Program-made: the position numbers and the translations under genes
Assembly (NCBI GenBank): GCA_049297675.1
Contig: JBAQUS010000004.1
Span: 13,188 to 77,187 of the forward strand
Reading direction: 5' to 3'
Length of the DNA stretch: 64,000 nucleotides
Origin: Minisyncoccia bacterium
GTDB lineage: Bacteria; Patescibacteriota; Minisyncoccia; Phycocordibacterales; DATDWN01
Notes under the pieces: generated by a model
What the model was told of the DNA's origin: nothing
Seen by the model: the letters and a program-made list of their open reading frames with translations, nothing else
The model's database searches: none
Shown: positions 5,331 to 64,000 of the stretch, piece by piece
Layout: each line of letters starts with the position of its first letter
Numbering within the stretch: the stretch's first letter is position 1

Positions 5331-5706
5331 ATTATTTAGCGAATACTCGCTATAACCCTGAGCGTTATATTAAAATCTTGCTCCGACTCAAGGGTTTTAT
5401 GAAGGTCTAGCCTTCGCAATTAGAGAGTTAAAAGTCCCTGAAACCACTGAGATATTAAGTTATCCCACCATTATAGCAAATCCACATATTTTTGTCAAAT
5501 AAGCCGAAATAAACGCTTTGTTAGTAAATAAAAATGATATAATTCTTAACATACTTTGAACTATGAAACTCGACGAAAACACATGTTTTCTGGCGTATCT
5601 CGGAATGCGTGTAGCATGAGAGTTAAGGAAAATTTTCAGCAGAAAATTATTCCGGCACCATAAAATATGTGTTGAGTAAGAGTTTCATGTTCCATAACAA
5701 AAAACA

Positions 5707-8982: not shown

Positions 8983-9060
8983 ATTCGACTACATTTTATG
9001 GTTATTTTAGGATTTTGAACAGTAGTAGTGGGAATCCCCTCGCTTATTCGCTTAGACTGT

Positions 9061-9552
9061 TTAGAGCTCTATACGAAAAAATACTTGTGGTCCCCATTTT
9101 GATTCCAAGGGAAAACTTTTAATAATCCTCTCCTTATAATGCCTGGATATATTTTCAGCAAAGTCATTTGCAATAAGAGCATTTCTTTCTAGATATTTAA
9201 AGCCACGAATCTTTAATTCATTTTCCAATTTATCCATAATAACCCCGAGTAGACCCTTACCCCTATAATCTTTTTTAATCACCGTGTCCCACATCCATGC
9301 AGTTTCTCCAGGTAAGGCTGGACTACCAGATGTTTCTGGTTCCATTGGTTTAGCATAAGCAAAGCCAATTATTTCTTGATTATCAAGATTTTTTAATAAT
9401 ACAATGGTATTTTCAGAATTTATAAAATCTTTCTCCAGTTCATCTTCAGTAAAAGGATGTTGTTCAAAAGCCTCATTTTCCAAAGAAATAATAGAATCTT
9501 TTGTTTCATTCCAACTAGATTGGTTACTATTAAATACCTCTGCCAAAATCAT
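9061..9552 (-). CDS. GNAT-family N-acetyltransferase
   Basis: YRGKGLLGVIMDKLENELKIRGFKYLE acetyl-CoA-binding-type motif. Confidence 0.6.
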   Translation of the reverse strand: MILAEVFNSNQSSWNETKDSIISLENEAFEQHPFTEDELEKDFINSENTIVLLKNLDNQEIIGFAYAKPMEPETSGSPALPGETAWMWDTVIKKDYRGKGLLGVIMDKLENELKIRGFKYLERNALIANDFAENISRHYKERIIKSFPLESKWGPQVFFRIEL

Positions 9553-12384: not shown

Positions 12385-12945
12385 TTATGATTTTAATCCG
12401 AATAATTTTTGACCCTCATCAAACAAATCGAGCATATCCTTCGAAAGAATGAGTGGGATAAACTTTTGTCTATCTTCTGGAGTAAGATTGTTTAGAGAAT
12501 CAATCTTCCAAGCTTCAAAGCCTATCGCTTTACCGGACTCGACCTGAAGGTCGCTGACCTTACCATCAAAAAGATAAACGTATTGTGAACGAATAGTATT
12601 ATTCGTAAGTTTTGTTACTTCATCAAAACTTTTCTTAAACATCTTTTTTACTAGCTTTAATTTTGAAAGATCTACATTAATTCCAGTTTCTTCTTTACAT
12701 TCTTTAACCGCTGTCTCATCATAAGTCATTTTTGGATCAACATGCCCACCAACAGTTGCATCAAGAAGATCTGGATATGTGTCTTTATCTTTTGCTCGAT
12801 GTTGGAAAACAATCTCCCTATCTGGAGTTATAAACCAAATATGAATTTCGCGATGCAATAATCCTTTTTCATGAACAGTTTTCCTTGGTTCAAGACCAAT
12901 TATTTCATCATTTTCATTTACAACTTCAAGCATTTCTTCTTTCAT
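12385..12945 (-). CDS. Nudix hydrolase
   Basis: Nudix box GGHVDPKMTYDETAVKECKEETGI. Confidence 0.7.
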   Translation of the reverse strand: MKEEMLEVVNENDEIIGLEPRKTVHEKGLLHREIHIWFITPDREIVFQHRAKDKDTYPDLLDATVGGHVDPKMTYDETAVKECKEETGINVDLSKLKLVKKMFKKSFDEVTKLTNNTIRSQYVYLFDGKVSDLQVESGKAIGFEAWKIDSLNNLTPEDRQKFIPLILSKDMLDLFDEGQKLFGLKS

Positions 12946-12960
12946 ATTTAGTATAATAAC

Positions 12961-12995
12961 AAAAAATCACCGAGTTGTATCGGTGATTTTTTGTC
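12961..12995 (-). terminator. Rho-independent terminator downstream of tRNA-Gln (A-run/hairpin/T-run, bidirectional in form)
   Basis: AAAAAATCACCGA-GTTGTA-TCGGTGATTTTTTGT. Near-identical copy at 33931-33968 downstream of tRNA-Trp. Confidence 0.7.
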
Positions 12996-13082
12996 TTGAA
13001 TACTGCACTCAGCAGGTATGCTATGTCGGAATAGGTACTTGAGCCATTTCGACCCTCCTCGGAGTCCGAAACTATCTCAAGC

Positions 13083-13156
13083 TGGCTGGGGGGGAAGGAA
13101 TCGGACCTTCATTAGAAGCTTCAAAGGCTCCTGTCCTACCATTAGACGACCCCCCA
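13083..13156 (-). tRNA. tRNA-Gln (anticodon UUG), CCA encoded
   Basis: Hand-folded cloverleaf: acceptor TGGGGGG/CCCCCCA, D-loop AATGGTAG, anticodon loop CTTTGAA, T-arm GAAGG-TCCGATT-CCTTC, 3' GCCA. Confidence 0.75.
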
Positions 13157-13436
13157 AATTTCTAGAATCAGGAAATCGGTCACAAATAATTTTCTGATGA
13201 AAATTTTCGCGACCCCGCCTCCTTCGTCTTCACTCAGTCCGGCCTTGCAAAAACATAACATGTTTTCTCACCCCTCTAAAGGCTTCAAAGGCCTCTGTTC
13301 TAGCGTGGGGCGTCTCCCAATATGCAATACAGTAACACTTTTTTTTGTCATCCTCAACTATTAGTCTAATCCAATTCACAATTACATACAAATATAAATT
13401 GATTAAACTTTAACTACTAATTAATTTACTTTGCTA

Positions 13437-13472
13437 TACACTTAACTTATGCTATAGCATAAGTTAAGTGTA
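13437..13472. promoter_or_regulatory. 36-nt perfect palindrome TACACTTAACTTATGCTA|TAGCATAAGTTAAGTGTA, 26 nt downstream of the PaaX-like gene stop
   Basis: Perfect 18+18 inverted repeat. Related to the palindrome at 14084-14130. Confidence 0.5.
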
Positions 13473-13498
13473 TGTAGTCTTAGTATAGTATTTTAAGT

Positions 13499-14071
13499 TC
13501 AATCGAGAGAAAGAGAAAATAATTTTCTAATTCTCTTATCACCTTCGATAGAATCTGCAATTATGTAAAGTAGATCCTTCCCTATTTTGAAATCAGCTTT
13601 CAGTAAATTAATAAAGTCCTCACAATCGTAAGGGTAAATCCAGACACTATCTTGTAATCTCAGAAAACCAACACTACTAAGAGTCAACCTGACCTTGTTT
13701 CTAAGAATTTTTCTTGTTTCGGGAATATCAAAAATGAGCATTCTCCATCTTTTATCCCATTTCTTTGGTTTGCTAATTTTCCAATCCCTTATTTCCATGC
13801 CTTCTAAATATTTTAGTCCCTTTTCAGTTATTCTTATTAACCCGTTCTCACGTCCTAAAAATCCATTTTGTAGCAATTTATCACGAGATCTAGCCATTAC
13901 TTCTCTCTGCCTCTTTATCGGCTTAAAACCTGCTTTCTCTAGATACTGAACGGCATTAGGAGCAAGCAGTGCGAGACTGACATACCCCGCTAACTTTACT
14001 GAGGTTAGTATTATTTTTTTGAGATCATTTCTTGCCTTCCTTTTTCTTGATTTATTCTCTATATCCCCCAT
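13499..14071 (-). CDS. PaaX-family-like transcriptional regulator (wHTH plus PaaX_C/Cas2-like C-terminal domain)
   Basis: WRMLIFDIPETRKILRNKVRLTLSSVGFLRLQDSVWIYP matches the PaaX C-terminal signature (W..v.fdvPe..R..lr..L...Gfg.l..svW). Confidence 0.5.
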   Translation of the reverse strand: MGDIENKSRKRKARNDLKKIILTSVKLAGYVSLALLAPNAVQYLEKAGFKPIKRQREVMARSRDKLLQNGFLGRENGLIRITEKGLKYLEGMEIRDWKISKPKKWDKRWRMLIFDIPETRKILRNKVRLTLSSVGFLRLQDSVWIYPYDCEDFINLLKADFKIGKDLLYIIADSIEGDKRIRKLFSLSLD

Positions 14072-14083
14072 TATTCGAATATA

Positions 14084-14130
14084 TCATATACACTTAACTA
14101 GTGCTATAGCACTGATTAAGTGTATATGAT
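14084..14130. promoter_or_regulatory. 47-nt near-perfect palindrome TCATATACACTTAACTAGTGCTA|TAGCACTGATTAAGTGTATATGA, 13 nt upstream of the PaaX-like start; candidate operator
   Basis: 23+23 inverted repeat with one dinucleotide swap. Shares ACACTTAACT...GCTATAGC...AGTTAAGTGT with 13437-13472. Confidence 0.5.
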
Positions 14131-14280
14131 AGTTACGTAATATGCGTTAGTGTGTCTAATTCGTGTGCTAATATGTTTGTCTAGGACTATCAATAATATA
14201 TTATGAATCTATAATCAGTTTATTTATTCTGCTATTATTACAAATGTTACTAATCCTTCGTAGAATTCAAGAAAACGATA

Positions 14281-21803: not shown

Positions 21804-22154
21804 ATGAACAACAACTCAAAATATGATCTCGAAGAGAGGACTGCAAAGTTTGGAGAAAATATAATAGTATTTTGTAAAGACTTGCCTAAAAATGAAATAA
21901 CCAAACCCTTAATCAATCAACTAATAAAATGTGGCACCAGTGTTGGTGCAAATTATTGCGAAGCAGACGATGCAGAGAGTAAAGCTGATTTTAAACATAA
22001 AATTGGAATTTGTAAAAAAGAAGCAAGAGAATCAAAACATTTCTTAAGAATGGTGGTTACAGCAGCACCAGAAACTAAATCGAGTGCAACAAAACTTTGG
22101 TTAGAGGCAAAAGAAATAAACTTAATTTTTAATTCGATATACAAAAAGTGCTAA
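21804..22154 (+). CDS. Four-helix-bundle protein (PF05635-like; 23S rRNA intervening-sequence-protein family)
   Basis: LINQLIKCGTSVGANYCEADDAESKADFKHKIGICKKEARESKHFLRMV. Confidence 0.55.
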   Translation: MNNNSKYDLEERTAKFGENIIVFCKDLPKNEITKPLINQLIKCGTSVGANYCEADDAESKADFKHKIGICKKEARESKHFLRMVVTAAPETKSSATKLWLEAKEINLIFNSIYKKC

Positions 22155-24549: not shown

Positions 24550-25953
24550 GTGAATGATCTAAAAGAAATAACCTCTTTGATGCTAAATCCGACGGAGAAT
24601 GATATTTCTCTTGTCGAAAAAGCCTTTAGTTTTGCTAAAAAGGCTCATGAAGGTAGTATGAGAAAAAGTGGTGAACCTTATTTTAACCATGTTTTTGGCA
24701 CCGCGAAAAATATTGCTGAGATTGGCATGGGAGCTACCACAATAGCTTCTGGACTTTTGCATGACACTATTGAGGACACAAAAGTAACCGAGGAGGAAAT
24801 CGAGAGAGAATTCGGAAGTGAGATATTGTTCCTAGTTGAAGGTGTAACCAAGCTCGGTAAATTGAAATATCACGGTACTGAGAGATATAACGAGAGTCTA
24901 AGAAAGCTTTTTGTGGCAACTTCAAAAGATATTAGGGTTCTTATCATAAAACTCTGTGACAGGCTTAATAATATGCAAACTCTTTCTGCCATTCCGAAGG
25001 AGAAACAAATTCGTATTGCTAAAGAAACTCTTGAGATATATGCACCTATCGCCTACCGGCTGGGCATAAAGAAACTCCAGAGAGATCTAGAGGACACTTC
25101 TTTCGGCTACGTATATCCAAAAGAATATGAGGAAATAAAAAAGATTTTGAATGTAAAGAAGAACGAAGTCGAGAAACATCTTGATAAATTTCAAAAGTCA
25201 TTAAAAAAGGAGTTGGCAAAAAACGATATTACAGATTTTAAGATTGATTACAGAGTAAAAAGCCTATACTCACTTTATAAAAAATTACAAAAATACAAAT
25301 GGAATGTTGAATCAGTTTACGATATTTCAGCCATTCGCATAACTGTTCCAGAGATTTCCGATTGTTATAGAGTTTTAGGAGTAGTTCACGGATCATGGAG
25401 ACCACTTCCTGAGAGAATAAAAGACTACATTGCATCCCCTAAGCTAAACGGGTATAGATCGATACACACGACTATTTTCACAGGAGATGGTGGAATTATA
25501 GAGGTCCAGATCCGAACTGAGGAGATGCATAAGGAAGCGGAGTACGGTATCGCTTCTCATTTATCGTACAAGCAAGGAGGAAAATCCGCCACTGGCTGGA
25601 TAAAAGACTTGATAGAATATCAAAAAGAAGCTGGCGACGAATTCATTGAAAACATAAAGACTGACTTTTTCGAGGAGAGAATTTTTATTTTCACCCCCAT
25701 AGGAGACGTCATGGACCTACCCAAAGGCTCATCAGTTATAGACTTTGCCTATGCTGTTCACACTGATATTGGAGACCACATGTCGGGGGCAAAAATAAAC
25801 GGTAAATTTGTGGCAATCACTACCACGCTTCAAAACGGCGACAGGGTTGAGATAGAAACCAAAAAATCCGCCAAGCCAAGCTCCAAGTGGCTAGAGTTCT
25901 GCAAGACTACCGTTGCCCGTCGAAAAATCCAACATTCACTCGAGAGAAAATAA
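24550..25953 (+). CDS. Small RelA/SpoT homolog (HD hydrolase plus (p)ppGpp synthetase plus TGS; no ACT)
   Basis: HD motif LLHDTIEDT, synthetase motif GYRSIHT, and TGS-like C-terminus. GTG start. Confidence 0.8.
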   Translation: MNDLKEITSLMLNPTENDISLVEKAFSFAKKAHEGSMRKSGEPYFNHVFGTAKNIAEIGMGATTIASGLLHDTIEDTKVTEEEIEREFGSEILFLVEGVTKLGKLKYHGTERYNESLRKLFVATSKDIRVLIIKLCDRLNNMQTLSAIPKEKQIRIAKETLEIYAPIAYRLGIKKLQRDLEDTSFGYVYPKEYEEIKKILNVKKNEVEKHLDKFQKSLKKELAKNDITDFKIDYRVKSLYSLYKKLQKYKWNVESVYDISAIRITVPEISDCYRVLGVVHGSWRPLPERIKDYIASPKLNGYRSIHTTIFTGDGGIIEVQIRTEEMHKEAEYGIASHLSYKQGGKSATGWIKDLIEYQKEAGDEFIENIKTDFFEERIFIFTPIGDVMDLPKGSSVIDFAYAVHTDIGDHMSGAKINGKFVAITTTLQNGDRVEIETKKSAKPSSKWLEFCKTTVARRKIQHSLERK

Positions 25954-25961
25954 TCACTACA

Positions 25962-26041
25962 CAAAATTTCTTTCTCACTATTTATTTTTCCAGACCGCAT
26001 AAATCCTTGGTAGGATTTTGCTTAGCCTCGGCACTCTAAGA
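25962..26041 (+). other. Conserved 80-nt noncoding element, copy A (candidate structured RNA, 3'-UTR element or terminator/attenuator)
   Basis: Shares CAAAATTTCTTTCTCAC...TTTTTCCAGACCGCATAAA-[hairpin]-TTTTGCTTAGCCTCG....TCTAAGA with 63919-63998. The internal hairpin covaries (AAATCCT/AGGATTT here). Confidence 0.5.
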
Positions 26042-26414
26042 GACTCATCAAAGGATTACCTTTGTGATTCTCTAAAGTGCCTGCGGAGTCTTCCGAAGAG
26101 TTCACACTGACTACTGCGTCGGATATAAGACTTCGCATGCTAAACCTCCCTGTTCTTGCAAAAGGATACCAATCAAATCTAGTTTTGTCAAAAAATATTT
26201 TACAAATAAATAAACGAAGACTCCCATCGCTTGTTCACAATTGTGGCAAAAAATTCTCACAATGAGAACATGATGAATAAAATCTCGTTGACTTGTAATT
26301 TTTTCAGAATATGTCGGAAGCCGAAGAGACCGAGACTTAAAGGAAAATTTCAGCAGAAATTTATCATGGTTCTGAAAAAATTATAAGGAAAAAGAGATTT
26401 TGTAATTGAAGTTT

Positions 26415-27461
26415 TTATATGCTGAAGTTTTTGATGGAGTATAATTCTTCATCACTGCTATTTTCATCTCGAGACTTCTCTAGAGGTGTTCGGTCGTCCA
26501 TTTCCTTTAGGTCGCTTATAGTAAGGTCAACTGCAGTTGAGTCGTTAATATAGTTTGGAACATTTTCGTTTTTTGGGGGAATGGGATTTTCTACAATATG
26601 TTTATCTAACATTTCTGTGCCAGTCATTTTTTGATTGGATTTTATAAGTTCGAGAATTTGATGGAGGTCTTCGTTTGAGAAATAATCTATAAGAATTTTC
26701 CCGCCATTTTCTCTTTTCTCGATCGAAACCCTTGTTCCTAGTGTCTCTGTTAGTCTCTCTTCCATCTCCTGCGTTTCAGGATCTAGTGTAGCTCCCTTCT
26801 TTTTTATTTTGTCATAGGCAATCCTCCTACCAATTGCTTCGGTTTCCCTAACGGTCAATTTTTTATACATTATTTCCTTAAACAGTGTTTGTTGTTCGTC
26901 TGGTCTGTCACCCAGCATCATGAGGGGTCTTGCATGACCCTCTGTGATCTTGCCTTGAGAGATAGCATCTAGAATCTCCTTGGGAAGGGCTAAGAGCCTT
27001 ACGGAGTTTGAAACATATTCACGGCTCTTTCCAACTTTCTTGCCAATCTCATGGTGTTTAAAACCAAACTCATCAATAAGTCTTTGAAAAGCTCTGGCTC
27101 TATCAACAGGATTTAGATCCTCTCTTTGGATATTTTCTATTATTGCTAACTCAAGCTTCAATAAATCATTTTCTTCATCCCCTACTTTTATAAGTGCAGG
27201 CACTTGAGAAAGCCCGGCTATCTTCGATGCTCGAAGTCGTCTTTCGCCCGCTATGAGTTCATACTGAACATCGAGTCCTCCATCTTCTTTTTGAATCTCC
27301 TTTCGAGTGACAACGAGTGCTTGCAAAACTCCGTACTGCCTTATTGAATCTGCAAGAGACTGGAGTTCAGCTTCGTTAAATTCCCTTCTAGGTTGAAAGG
27401 GGTTAGGAATTATTTTGTCTACATCTATCCAGAAAATTGAATCCTTATAAAACTGGGACAT
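26415..27461 (-). CDS. parB: ParB/Spo0J chromosome-partitioning protein
   Basis: ParB box LIAGERRLRAS plus an HTH region. Confidence 0.8.
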   Translation of the reverse strand: MSQFYKDSIFWIDVDKIIPNPFQPRREFNEAELQSLADSIRQYGVLQALVVTRKEIQKEDGGLDVQYELIAGERRLRASKIAGLSQVPALIKVGDEENDLLKLELAIIENIQREDLNPVDRARAFQRLIDEFGFKHHEIGKKVGKSREYVSNSVRLLALPKEILDAISQGKITEGHARPLMMLGDRPDEQQTLFKEIMYKKLTVRETEAIGRRIAYDKIKKKGATLDPETQEMEERLTETLGTRVSIEKRENGGKILIDYFSNEDLHQILELIKSNQKMTGTEMLDKHIVENPIPPKNENVPNYINDSTAVDLTISDLKEMDDRTPLEKSRDENSSDEELYSIKNFSI

Positions 27462-33401: not shown

Positions 33402-33917
33402 TCATTTTAAGATCTTGTAATGTAGCTGGATCGTATCCTCATTAAGTTTGTTAACTTCCATAAGTTTTAGATCGTATTCAAAATCAGCCTCAGAAAAAAC
33501 TTTTATTCCTTTTCCAAATATCAATGGTTCAACATCTAAATAAATCTCATCTATTAAGTTTTCTTTAAGAAAAGAACTATTTAATTGACCTCCTCCAGCC
33601 ACAAACGCTGTTTTAAAGTTTTTTGTTTCTAATAAATTCAATATATCTTTTGGTGACTTTTTTGTAATCAAAACATTGTCACCCCATTTATTTTCTATCT
33701 CCTGGTTAGATACTACAATATTCAAAGCATCTGGAAATGGAAAATATCCATACTTAGAAGTTTCTATATATGTATTTTTACCCATTATTGTATTTCCTGC
33801 TGATTTACTATGTTCGTAAAATCCTTTCAAGTCTTCTTCTTAAGTAAACTCTGAATTACCATTTTCTCTAGCAATATAACCATTAGCAGATATTCCCATA
33901 TAGATAATTGTCTTCAT
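33402..33917 (-). pseudogene. Dihydrofolate reductase-like (RibD_C/DHFR fold) gene interrupted by a single in-frame TAA (33840-33842, minus strand)
   Basis: N-terminal fragment MKTIIYMGISANGYIARENGNSEFT (33843-33917), then TAA, then in frame EED-L-KGFYEHSKSAGNTIMGKNTY... The track ORF begins at a TTG at 33830. Confidence 0.55.
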
Positions 33918-33930
33918 AATCATCATAATA

Positions 33931-33968
33931 ACAAAAAATCACTGATTTGTATCGGTGATTTTTTGTCT
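33931..33968 (-). terminator. Rho-independent terminator downstream of tRNA-Trp (copy of the 12961-12995 element)
   Basis: AAAAAATCACTGA-TTTGTA-TCGGTGATTTTTTGT. Confidence 0.65.
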
Positions 33969-34030
33969 CAAATATTGCTTTACTTTCTCGCAAAAACGTC
34001 ACATTGACGCGTCTCGTGCGACGCTCGACT

Positions 34031-45203: not shown

Positions 45204-45491
45204 ATAAGGAACTAAAGGGTTCTGAATGCGAACCCAAGCGGAACGCCCGAAGGGCGTGCCAAGGATTTTCGCCTGATTCTGCAAGAGAATTCGGGAATTT
45301 TGGTGTGCAAGCGTGCAAGGTTTTTTCGTCGAGACGCAGGTTCGAGCCAAAGATTTCTTTGGCATAGACCTTTTTAGTAAAAAGATCTGAATCAGAAGCG
45401 ATTCTGTCCAATGATTCCGCGTCTTTTAGCCATTGTTGGAAAGGTGCGAGCCAATCATTCTACTTGTGTGAAAGAGAGGTCATTTCTCATC

Positions 45492-45515
45492 TGTCAAACA
45501 TCCGATGTTTGACAG
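45492..45515. repeat. REP-like palindrome TGTCAAACATC-C-GATGTTTGACA (copy 1, rayT1-associated)
   Basis: Perfect palindrome with 11-nt arms, 41 nt beyond the rayT1 stop. Confidence 0.6.
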
Positions 45516-45555: not shown

Positions 45556-46215
45556 TTATACTTCAAAAGTTTTGGTGTCAGCTTTTACCCCGCTATTTTT
45601 TACAAATTTATAATATTCATATTTATCCTCAAATTGGTCTAATACTACTTCCCTTTTTAATATTTCCTTCCAACGATTTTCTGTAACGTAATCCTGATAG
45701 CTAGACCACTCATATTTTTCTGGATTATTACTCCAATGTGAAAGCTCTTTTGGATTTAAATGAACATACGCAGATAAATGTAGTAGTTGTTCATTACTTT
45801 CAACATGAACTGCTTTATACGGACCTTCAAAAAGATGCCCCGAAATTTTATATTTAGTATTGAAGTATTTTGTATACGAGTTAAGTACACGTTGCATATA
45901 TTTCCCAGTTCCACCTTCTTCATTTTCACGAACTATTAGATGAAAATGGTTAGTCATCATCGCAAAAGAAACTAGGTCAACGTATCTTTTCGAAATTATC
46001 TTTTCGTAATCATCACTGTTAATGTCAAACATCCGATGTTTGACATAATTCGAGATCATTCTTGAAACTTGAGGAAAAATAACATTTGCTTGAAAGTATA
46101 AAATGAGAAATAAAAATCTAATTCTATCTCTATCATCCTTGAAGATGATTTTCTTCCCAACTCCCCGATTATATATATGATAGTGTTCCCCAATTTCAAT
46201 ATTATCTCTTCTCAT
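45556..46215 (-). CDS. IS200-like Y1/HUH transposase, RayT (REP-associated tyrosine transposase)-type, paralog 1
   Basis: YHIYNRGV N-terminus, HUH motif HFHLIV, and Y-containing C-terminal helix (GPYKAVHVE). REP palindromes on both sides. Homologous to 54366-55043. Confidence 0.65.
   Translation of the reverse strand: MRRDNIEIGEHYHIYNRGVGKKIIFKDDRDRIRFLFLILYFQANVIFPQVSRMISNYVKHRMFDINSDDYEKIISKRYVDLVSFAMMTNHFHLIVRENEEGGTGKYMQRVLNSYTKYFNTKYKISGHLFEGPYKAVHVESNEQLLHLSAYVHLNPKELSHWSNNPEKYEWSSYQDYVTENRWKEILKREVVLDQFEDKYEYYKFVKNSGVKADTKTFEV
46022..46046. repeat. REP-like palindrome ATGTCAAACATC-C-GATGTTTGACAT (copy 2) lying inside the rayT1 coding sequence
   Basis: 12-nt arms. Encodes VKHRMFD in rayT1; the same peptide is read from the opposite strand because of the palindrome. 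Confidence 0.55.
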
Positions 46216-46240: not shown

Positions 46241-46277
46241 ATCCATCTGTCAAACATCGGATGTTTGACAGATGGAT
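46241..46277. repeat. REP-like extended palindrome ATCCATCTGTCAAACATC-G-GATGTTTGACAGATGGAT (copy 3; centre inverted relative to copies 1 and 2)
   Basis: Perfect palindrome with 18-nt arms, 26 nt upstream of the rayT1 start. Confidence 0.6.
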
Positions 46278-59055: not shown

Positions 59056-59220
59056 AGAATTTTGAAAGTTATTTATTTGACTACTCAGTTGTAGAAATCA
59101 GTCGTAGAAAATAAAGCGAGGACTCCCCTCGCTTACTCGCTTAAAATACTTAGAGAAACAGAAAACCCGCCGACCGATGCCGACGGGTTTCATAATCGTC
59201 GCTTGAGGTGATTTCCATTG

Positions 59221-62674: not shown

Positions 62675-63910
62675 ATGACAAAAAAATTAGGAAAAAACTC
62701 CGGTGAAAAGCAGTCTAAATCGCACTTAGAGAGTGTTACTGATAAGGTTGGTGAAACAGCAATTCACTATGGATTTACGGTTGTCAGACCTCCCCAAATA
62801 ACATCTGATGATATTTCAAAGTATAAACAATTCAAAGAATCCGATCACTACGGTGACGCACTAGAAAAAATAGCTTTGACTCGCTGGTATATAGAAAACA
62901 GACTTGAAACAGAAGCCCAACCTATTACAATTCATTATAAACGGCCTCTTCTGGGAGGACACTTAAAGAAAAAACCAAACATTGAGATGTATGGCTTTGA
63001 AGTAATGGGTAACACCAAAGCTACTTCTGAAGCTCTGATTTTAAAAACCATTTTGGCAGTTTTAGACGATTTGGGATATAGGGATTTGTATTTAGACATA
63101 AATAGTATAGGTGACAGAGAATCTATTTCAAGATTTGAAAGAGAGCTTCAGTCATACTTTAGAAAAAATCAACACATACTACCAGCCAAACTACGTAATG
63201 ATTTTAAAAAGAATCATTACTCTTTTGTCATAGAAAACCACCCTGAATCAAAAGAGTTTTTAAAAAATGCTCCACAAACCGTCGGCACTCTCTCTGAAGC
63301 AGGCCGTCTTCACTTTAAAGAAGTTTTAGAGTCAATTGAAGCTTTTGACGTGTCCTACAAAATTAAGCCACACGCAATAGCAAGCAAACATTATGCTTCC
63401 TATACAATATTTGAAGTTAGACAAATTTCAGAGAAAAAAGAGGAGGATGGAATCCTTTTGGCTTACGGTTACAGATACAACCACTTGGCCAAGAAAATAG
63501 GAGGAAAAAAGGATATATCAAGTGTCGGTGGCACAATCCTTGTAAAAAAGCACCCCTCATTTACAAAAAAAGTAGCTATAAAAAATATAAAGAAACCAAG
63601 ATTTTACTTGGTTCAGCTAGGCTCCATTGCTAAACTAAAAGTTCTAAACGTTGTTGAAATGCTTCGTAAAAATAAAATCGGCGTTTATCACTCTATAACT
63701 AAAGACAAAATCACGGGACAACTAAATGGGGCTGAATACATGAAAGCCTCTCACGTTCTCATAATGGGTCAGAAGGAAGCCATAGAAAACAGTATCGTTG
63801 TCAGAAACCTAATAAACCGAGAACAAGAAACTGTCTCACTTGAGAAACTACCTGAGTTTTTAAAAAGTTTGGATAAAGATGAGGTAAAGAAGAAAAAGAT
63901 GAAGAAATAG
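62675..63910 (+). CDS. Histidyl-tRNA synthetase-like protein (HisRS/HisZ family; divergent catalytic motifs, typical HGTP anticodon-binding domain)
   Basis: GYRYNHLAKKIGGKKDISSVGG resembles HisRS motif 3 (GGRYD...G). C-terminal FYLVQLGSIAKLKVLNVVEMLRKNKIGV...VLIMGQKEAIENSIVVRNL is anticodon-binding-like. Confidence 0.5.
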   Translation: MTKKLGKNSGEKQSKSHLESVTDKVGETAIHYGFTVVRPPQITSDDISKYKQFKESDHYGDALEKIALTRWYIENRLETEAQPITIHYKRPLLGGHLKKKPNIEMYGFEVMGNTKATSEALILKTILAVLDDLGYRDLYLDINSIGDRESISRFERELQSYFRKNQHILPAKLRNDFKKNHYSFVIENHPESKEFLKNAPQTVGTLSEAGRLHFKEVLESIEAFDVSYKIKPHAIASKHYASYTIFEVRQISEKKEEDGILLAYGYRYNHLAKKIGGKKDISSVGGTILVKKHPSFTKKVAIKNIKKPRFYLVQLGSIAKLKVLNVVEMLRKNKIGVYHSITKDKITGQLNGAEYMKASHVLIMGQKEAIENSIVVRNLINREQETVSLEKLPEFLKSLDKDEVKKKKMKK

Positions 63911-63918
63911 TTGATTTT

Positions 63919-63998
63919 CAAAATTTCTTTCTCACCAAATCTTTTTCCAGACCGCATAAAAGTTTGCTAACTTTTTGCTTAGCCTCGAAAATCTAAGA
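63919..63998 (+). other. Conserved 80-nt noncoding element, copy B (truncated by the window end)
   Basis: Same conserved blocks as 25962-26041. Internal hairpin AAAAGTT/AACTTTT covaries with copy A. Confidence 0.5.
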
Positions 63999-64000
63999 AA

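Follow-up and report, generated by a model that had tools for sequence, protein, structure and literature searches.

The 64,000 nt of DNA analysed here (the window) hold four members of a genuine family of structured repeats, not described before, that belongs to one clade of Paceibacteria and is of a known general kind. At least 22 distinct members were found in all, 4 in the window and 18 in related Paceibacteria/Parcubacteria contigs. The existence of the family, its branched fold, the purifying selection on it and its placement, mostly behind stop codons, are established. We found no description of such an element in the literature on structured RNAs or repeats of CPR bacteria (Patescibacteria).

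CPR bacteria have genomes of about 1 Mb with very little spare DNA; to our knowledge, none of this CPR group is routinely cultured and almost no noncoding RNAs have been described in the phylum. One copy per ∼ 16 kb, purifying selection and sites at stop codons, in genomes this small, make a general role in gene expression likely. The motif is well supported and its covariance model explains, for annotators, many otherwise empty intergenic regions. It poses the question of why a branched fold with frozen junction nucleotides is maintained at gene ends without wobble pairs.

Members of the family in the window

The original prediction described an 80-nt element in two copies, at 25962-26041 (copy A) and 63919-63998 (copy B), and a repeat search of the window confirmed these as a direct repeat of 83% identity. 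The three blocks that they were said to share are real: block 1, block 2 (TTTTTCCAGACCGCATAAA, a 19-mer) and block 3 (TTTTGCTTAGCCTCG, a 15-mer) each occur exactly twice in the 64 kb, with chance expectations of 0.05 for block 2 even with three mismatches and of 0.12 for block 3 at ≤ 2 mismatches. The hairpins between blocks 2 and 3 are in register and keep their pairing (AAATCCT-TGGT-AGGATTT versus AAAAGTT-TGCT-AACTTTT, differing at distal stem positions), and at least six further versions of this stem stand at the same place among homologues. It also holds that the copies sit behind unrelated genes, copy A behind a RelA/SpoT homologue (RSH) gene and copy B behind a HisRS-like gene, and that copy B is cut off by the window end. 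The proposed extent needs revision: the 80 nt are conserved, as claimed, but are merely the 5′ half of the element, the core of copy A reaching ∼ 26097. The suggestion that they form the 5′ part of a small RNA survives solely in the sense that they are half of a fold.

Contig breaks at 25991 and 26065 hinted at a repeat larger than 80 nt. All four Logan contigs of the same organism (L001-L004; independent assemblies from several runs) end at these two positions, inside copy A, which suggests either that nearly identical copies exist at other sites of the genome or that hairpins P3 and P4 vary between strains.

Two covariance models were used, R1, built from five canonical copies (those with a long P4) and run without filters, and R2, built from 12 members. 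R2 finds the four members in the window and nothing else above noise. The features are as follows.

25961..26097, plus strand: conserved core of copy A (model positions 1-137; R1 119.7 bits, E = 5e-31, match 25986-26097; R2 114.4 bits)
25961..25988, plus strand: 5′ strand of the closing stem P1 of copy A, block 1 and TATTTATTTT (model alignment with unpaired marks, fold)
25992..25995, plus strand: 5′ strand of P2 of copy A, AGAC, pairing with GTCT at 26088-26091 (consensus structure)
25997..26021, plus strand: P3 hairpin of copy A, GCA-T-AAATCCT, loop TGGT, AGGATTT-TGC (the hairpin first noted, plus 3 bp)
26022..26029, plus strand: junction of copy A, TTAG-CC-TC (CC at 26026-26027 pairs with GG at 26085-26086)
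26030..26081, plus strand: P4 of copy A, the long variable-length hairpin, 52 nt (helices 6 and 7, alignment)
26082..26097, plus strand: 3′ junction and 3′ strand of P2 of copy A, TGCGGAGTCTTCCGAA (R2 alignment)
26098..26273, no strand: 176-nt spacer between the convergent copies A and A′, with extra hairpins
26274..26403, minus strand: copy A′, a complete short-P4 member (R1 57 bits, E = 1e-13; R2 83.7 bits, E = 2e-23; fold)
5559..5689, minus strand: third complete member, short P4 (R1 50 bits, E = 9e-12; R2 77.7 bits, E = 1.6e-21)
5470..5498, minus strand: consensus promoter TTGACA-17-TATAAT with TG (12/12 matches), downstream of the third member
63918..64000, plus strand: truncated copy B, limited to the 5′ half (found by R1 as well; 64.3 bits with R2 in truncated mode, covering model positions 1-83)
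24550..25953, plus strand: RSH gene, upstream of copy A (Pfam HD_4, RelA_SpoT, TGS)
26415..27461, minus strand: parB gene, upstream of copy A′ (Pfam ParB_N, HTH_ParB, ParB_C)
62675..63910, plus strand: HisRS-like gene, upstream of copy B (Pfam HGTP_anticodon; tRNA-synt_His below cut-off, 21 versus 25 bits)

Copies A and B both start 7 nt past the stop codon of the preceding gene; judged by its sequence, the HisRS-like protein may be a diverged HisRS or a HisZ-like paralogue. Copy A′ starts 11 nt past the stop codon of parB, and copies A and A′ converge. Accordingly, the '370 nt of hairpin-rich sequence' first noted behind copy A is noncoding and does contain hairpins but is a composite of the remainder of copy A, the 176-nt spacer and the diverged opposite-strand member at 26403-26274. 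The third member lies between the start of an acyltransferase gene (5707, plus strand) and the promoter of a DEAD-box helicase gene (Pfam); since this promoter (5498-5470) is downstream of the member, the latter is not part of the helicase leader.

Copy A is atypical, the canonical 3′ closing strand being missing after P2. The best candidate for a 3′ partner of its P1 is AAATAAATA at 26204-26212, in the spacer, a perfect 9-nt complement of TATTTATTT in copy A. The spacer further contains two segments complementary to GGAGTCTTC (26127-26135 and 26216-26224) and, on the minus strand, a promoter-like TTGACA-17-TATCCT (with TG) at 26191-26163 and a small hairpin, TTCTCA-TTG-TGAGAA, followed by T6 at 26268-26245. 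The spacer may represent remnants of additional copies or encode a separate small transcript.

Two larger-scale explanations of the repeats were rejected. The region is not a single 443-nt element with 30-nt terminal inverted repeats, because what looked like repeats are the 5′ arms of the convergent copies A and A′. Nor are the direct repeats attL and attR of a 38-kb island: they are only 83% identical, housekeeping and tRNA genes lie between them, and more copies exist elsewhere.

Fold, covariation and distribution in relatives

The element measures 130-225 nt and consists of a closing stem P1, a short P2 and a three-way junction that carries the hairpin P3 and the variable-length P4. P1 comprises 25-30 A/U-rich base pairs, interrupted by two small conserved pyrimidine internal loops; inside it follow a U4/A4 run, the 4-bp P2 and the junction. 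Past block 3, homologues have the long variable hairpin, then CGGAGTCTTCCAAAA and then GGTTTGGTTCGACGAGATTT, which is complementary to block 1. Single-sequence folds give the same shape (z-scores -7.0, -4.8 and -6.0). With RNAalifold, the five canonical copies yield 58 pairs, 17 of which show compensatory changes, and the 2-bp helix that closes the junction changes from CC/GG to UC/GA.

Of the 726 pair cells in the 16-member model alignment, 94.2% hold standard pairs, and both sides have changed in 49 of the 58 pairs. The covariation score of 0.42 was reached by none of 500 shuffles, which score 0.125, and a control in which the partners were slid by 1-3 columns gives 0.05-0.07. As this alignment is fitted to the model, the short-P4 members were refolded separately: a plain MAFFT alignment of eight of them, passed to RNAalifold, gives the same stems with 21 of 30 pairs compensated. 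By helix, P2 (helix 3) has double changes at all four pairs across the family, and P3 (helix 4) is 96.9% paired, with both-side changes in 10/10 pairs and the distal 4-5 bp different in almost every canonical copy. The two pairs of the junction helix 5 are CG in 9, UA in 4 and GC in 1, and CG in 13 and UA in 1, respectively.

P4 occurs in three forms: long (canonical), short (< 25 nt) and enlarged (> 100 nt, with a conserved sequence of its own). The enlarged form is found in L010 (3782-4000, minus strand) and L043 (11413-11636, plus strand), where, in different genomes and at different loci, it shares the conserved sequence CGCAAACUC..CUCAAACAAUGCUUCAGGC; it is a modular insertion inside the element.

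Several further structural or coding features were considered and discarded. The 5′ strand of the P1 loop is all pyrimidine, so tandem G-A pairs are impossible and P1 contains no kink-turn. A kissing interaction between the P3 and P4 loops would fit UGGU/AUUA and UACU/AGUA, but L021 and L024 break the pattern. On the minus strand, ATGCGGTCTGG... opens chance ORFs only, which run antisense into the upstream gene and are not conserved in the short subfamily; we thus see no small ORF.

Scans with the 19-mer of species-representative genomes and metagenomes gave mostly chance matches plus true homologues, the latter in Minisyncoccia/Paceibacterota assemblies (L007, L010, L013 = L017, L019, L021 = L026, L024 and L027). 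The window RSH is 69-81% identical to proteins of named Parcubacteria/Paceibacterota MAGs, which places the window in that group, and six RSH loci of relatives were scanned with R2. The model recognized four members in L048, two in L043 and a single one in each of L047, L049 and L050. Candidatus Zambryskibacteria (L045/L046) gave none, the RSH-parB gap being taken up there by an ordinary hairpin only. L019 and L024 also have second copies. The covariance searches proposed with the original prediction thus produced many further copies in the window and in relatives, with structure-preserving variation, and the family is not limited to two copies. A 16-mer scan of viral contigs gave chance matches only, and a viral origin was discarded.

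Copies A and B are 81-83% identical, and A and A′ can be aligned through the model only. Over the 5′ half, canonical copies are 73-91% identical whatever their locus or genome, without clustering by genome, and neither the 19-mer nor the 15-mer varies among them; for L010, which has the enlarged P4, the range is 62-73%. Four-fold sites of the window genome and L013/L021 are only 23-31% identical, i.e. saturated, at 75-82% identity of the RSH and ParB proteins. That the core is conserved despite this saturation demonstrates purifying selection on sequence and fold. Occupancy varies among close relatives: a copy lies behind topA in L043 and none there in the window, a copy lies behind the HisRS-like gene in the window and none there in L024, and the RSH/parB junction is held by different subfamilies in different genomes.

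Placement at gene ends and possible function

Eighteen of the 22 members follow a gene on their own strand, with a start at -22 to +67 nt relative to its stop codon; 16 of these 18 overlap that codon or start ≤ 11 nt from it. The exceptions, without a preceding co-oriented gene, are 5689-5559 in the window, L024 79-1, L007 and L048 4370-4547. At the RSH/parB junction the element is always oriented with RSH, and in L013, L021, L049 and L050 a single element takes up the whole convergent gap between the two stop codons. If the next gene is codirectional, the intervening space is filled by the element; in L010 and L048 the element is followed by an extended -10 motif. Tail-to-tail pairs are formed by A/A′ and by L048 4370-4547/4663-4532. 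The flanking genes are unrelated housekeeping genes (RSH, parB, HisRS-like, topA, ftsZ, frr/rseP, mltG/mnmA, pepF/alaS, serS, an aminotransferase gene, rnj and an S1-like gene), with no common functional theme.

This placement bears on the idea that the element is a leader (a riboswitch, an attenuator or one bound by a protein) that would regulate the downstream gene in cis. A co-oriented gene does follow within 10-30 nt in L019, L010 and L048. At least eight members, however, face a convergent gene and so have nothing downstream to regulate; where promoters are recognizable they sit between the element and the next gene, and the flanking genes lack a functional theme. The element thus does not match the position of a riboswitch or leader, the 5′ UTR of a co-oriented regulated gene. 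The leader reading is largely refuted by the convergent arrangements and we regard it as hardly credible. An attenuator, one of the functions first proposed, does not fit for the same reason, many copies lying between convergent genes, and it is 3′-end termination or stability, also among those proposals, that best matches the positions.

A-runs, which often comprise the last Lys codons and TAA, stand before canonical copies, and U-rich tails such as GAGAUUUUAUUUU come after them; by eye, CUC/GAG is followed by AUUUUAUUUU-type tails. These tails are not seen in L010 or L048, which are among several members without a U-tract, and a consensus terminator scan made no call at the elements. From the position at stop codons, the filled convergent gaps, the A- and U-tract flanks and the strand-symmetric pairing (see below), we tentatively favour a dispersed REP/ERIC-like family of transcript-end hairpin modules, although doubts about this reading remain considerable. 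The element would be transcribed as the tail of the preceding gene and, where genes converge, from the other strand as well; the transcript would fold into a long hairpin between A-tract and U-tract, which could end, insulate and/or protect the transcript from either side. The fold is branched, asymmetric and ancient and its unpaired nucleotides are constrained, which suggests a specific protein partner. These nucleotides might be the recognition surface for a putative protein such as a double-strand RNase or a terminator-associated factor. We infer transcription, termination or protection, and any such partner from placement and structure.

Several observations speak against the transcript-end reading, among them the missing terminator calls, the members without a U-tract and the four members that follow no co-oriented gene. 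In contrast to efficient intrinsic terminators, the stem is rich in A/U at its base and interrupted after the first 3 bp, and a plain terminator needs neither a three-way junction nor a frozen 19-mer. Copy A′ is followed by its own small hairpin and T6 and may thus not itself terminate. Finally, a hairpin that functions on two strands leaves the far lower reverse-strand model scores unexplained.

The pairing itself is strand-symmetric. In the 16-member alignment G-U occupies 13 cells and A-C 18, or 10 and 16 without the misaligned outer stem of copy A (p = 0.33). G-U makes up 1.8% of element pairs versus 5.6% in 20 tRNAs from the same sequences, i.e. it is three-fold rarer (p = 5e-4). The lack of a G-U excess suggests that the helices are kept Watson-Crick on both strands. 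This qualifies the argument that compensatory change signifies a functional RNA: variation does preserve the structure, as had been claimed, but G-U is not commoner than A-C. Strand-symmetric pairing fits a hairpin needed in both transcripts, a DNA hairpin or template switching, and fits a one-strand RNA gene less well. Sequence conservation, on the other hand, is strongly one-stranded, every reverse-strand match of R2 being worse than E = 1e-6.

One-stranded conservation, together with conserved unpaired nucleotides between covarying stems, would be expected of paralogous stable small RNAs that act in trans, as part of an RNP or by sequestering a protein, and are either released from mRNA 3′ ends or transcribed independently. 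At every locus the canonical copies remain close to a single consensus, as such RNAs might, and the three to four copies without a co-oriented upstream gene would need a promoter of their own. Yet most copies start at or inside a stop codon and so leave no room for a promoter, no -10/-35 is conserved upstream, and scarce G-U pairs are atypical of a one-strand RNA. One copy per ∼ 16 kb would also be a very high gene dose for a ∼ 1-Mb genome. Taken together, small RNAs acting in trans appear unlikely.

Symmetric pairing would also suit a DNA-level repeat, i.e. an element, either mobile but non-autonomous or domesticated, akin to MITEs, REP/BIME sequences or IS200 ends, whose hairpins would be recognized as folded ssDNA or duplex sites by a transposase or other DNA-binding protein and whose position at gene ends would reflect tolerated or targeted insertion. 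The absence of a G-U excess is expected of DNA pairing or of template-switch correction of quasi-palindromes. The repeats are dispersed and multi-copy with an occupancy that differs between close relatives, they occur in both orientations with two inverted pairs as in BIMEs, and the canonical copies have the inverted termini AAATCTC...GAGATTT. These termini, however, covary in diverged copies (GAAACTC/GAGTTTC, AAATTTC/AAAATTT, GTGATCC/GGATTAC), which is unexpected for an inverted repeat bound by a transposase. Target-site duplication is absent: among 19 members the longest word shared by the two flanks is 4.42 nt, versus 4.22 ± 0.22 nt in mismatched flanks. Near-identical copies within a genome, a sign of recent transposition, were not found; the copies are old, diverged (62-91% identity) and not clustered by genome, and the core is conserved at a syntenic locus across saturated synonymous divergence. 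No transposase, reverse transcriptase or nuclease gene adjoins any copy among the flanking genes examined in the genome fragments. The lack of target duplication, the covarying terminal 7-mers and the age of the copies speak against a MITE. It is also not part of a known IS terminal repeat, no IS end having been found. An IS605/TnpB omega-RNA or the right end of an IS was rejected because the minus-strand ORF that adjoins copy A is parB. We therefore consider a DNA-level repeat rather unlikely.

The element was also compared with known RNA families. With Rfam 15, no family reached the gathering threshold in the window and nine loci except tRNAs, and four different members gave noise of < 20 bits only at E ≤ 10. 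ARAGORN finds eight tRNAs in the window, none of them at the elements, and no tmRNA at the elements. There was no Rfam match to riboswitches or to known ribozymes, including hammerhead, twister, twister-sister, hatchet and pistol. 6S, SRP, RNase P, tmRNA, Y RNA, 5S, retron msr/msd and T-box were rejected, as Rfam gave no match and the element is multi-copy without an RT or Ro neighbour.

An architecture like that of small ribozymes, with invariant nucleotides at a junction, variable stems and many intergenic copies per genome, might point to a new catalytic RNA, for instance a self-cleaving ribozyme, serving to punctuate polycistronic transcripts. This is very improbable, given that no known ribozyme family scores even at E = 10, that the junction nucleotides differ between subfamilies and that the pairing is strand-symmetric. 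Quite unlikely, too, is the proposal of a new functional RNA class peculiar to Paceibacteria. Its members would be self-processing ribozymes or else RNA signals for a dedicated protein machinery, by which transcripts are punctuated where genes end in these minimal genomes. If it were true, the invariant junction nucleotides would be an active site or protein-binding pocket and the stems scaffolding.

Judged by analogy, the behaviour of the element is closest to that of ERIC, REP/BIME and Correia sequences, dispersed repeats that are co-transcribed with genes and affect mRNA ends. REP/BIME sequences are gene-end hairpins, often in inverted pairs, that serve as 3′-end barriers and attenuators; Liang, Rudd and Deutscher (2015) reportedly observed that REPs within ∼ 15 nt of the stop codon disturb translation termination. 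A REP is a simple 20-40-nt hairpin with a conserved 5′ tetranucleotide and a RAYT partner. The units found here do not match such a palindrome, being branched, 127-224 nt long and four to six times larger, and no RAYT was seen among the flanking genes. ERIC (IRU) sequences of Enterobacteriaceae are ∼ 130-nt intergenic repeats near stop or start codons that occur in both orientations, form a long stem and are co-transcribed with their neighbours; they have short inverted termini, longer variants that arose by insertions at internal sites, and reported effects on mRNA stability (PMC2229807). The element resembles ERIC in size, intergenic sites at gene ends, both orientations and a long stem. ERIC, however, is one imperfect palindrome with TA duplication, whereas the element is an asymmetric three-way junction with conserved unpaired nucleotides and no duplication; its architecture and its CPR host set it apart. 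The Correia (NEMIS/CREE) elements of Neisseria are transcribed, consist of inverted repeats and lie at gene borders, and RNase III binds or cuts the hairpin in their RNA (PMC2649163, PMC2229807). Correia elements have conserved inverted termini of 24-26 bp, a TA duplication, an IHF site and copies that are nearly identical, none of which was found for the element described here.

As a hairpin between an A-tract and a U-tract that fills a convergent gap, and that would need Watson-Crick pairing on both transcripts, the element is also like a bidirectional intrinsic terminator. Ordinary terminators, unlike the element, are 20-40 nt long, have a G+C-rich base and are not conserved in sequence; simple terminators of this kind are also present in the window (12959-12994 and 33931-33966). 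The RNase III signals of phage T7 (R1.1 and others) are intercistronic hairpins with conserved internal loops, where cutting leaves a protective 3′ stem. The likeness is a functional analogy only, since T7 signals are unbranched, viral and without sequence relation. From the ERIC, REP/BIME and Correia sequences the element differs in being branched, asymmetric and ancient, with highly constrained unpaired nucleotides.

Other repeats and features of the window

A 66-nt repeat, 86% identical between 12941-13006 and 33913-33978, contains an A6-stem-T6 palindrome (ACAAAAAATCACYGA..TCGGTGATTTTTTGT) and adjoins tRNA-Gln or tRNA-Trp. It resembles ordinary bidirectional terminators and seems to have been duplicated with its flank. 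Near the first copy, 47 nt at 13277-13323 are 70% identical to 13113-13159, part of the tRNA-Gln gene 164 nt away, and are possibly a decayed tRNA duplicate. Inverted repeats of 54 nt at 13420-13473 and 14088-14141 (78% complementary, each palindromic) bracket a 190-aa ORF (13499-14071, minus strand), an arrangement like that of a cassette or an invertible segment.

A perfect 28-nt palindrome, CATCTGTCAAACATCSGATGTTTGACAG, occurs three times (45488-45515, 46019-46046 and 46244-46271) around and inside the ORF 45556-46215 (minus strand) and is operator-like. A second short intergenic motif, GGAMTCCCCTCGCTTAYTCGCTTA..TTAGAG, at 9031-9066 and 59120-59155, is 83% identical between its two copies, the flanks of which cannot be aligned. 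Between dprA and topA lies a gene (21804-22154, plus strand) for a PF05635 protein (23S rRNA intervening-sequence/Avd-like four-helix bundle), which is absent in L043, L045 and L048 and kept at that place in L050.
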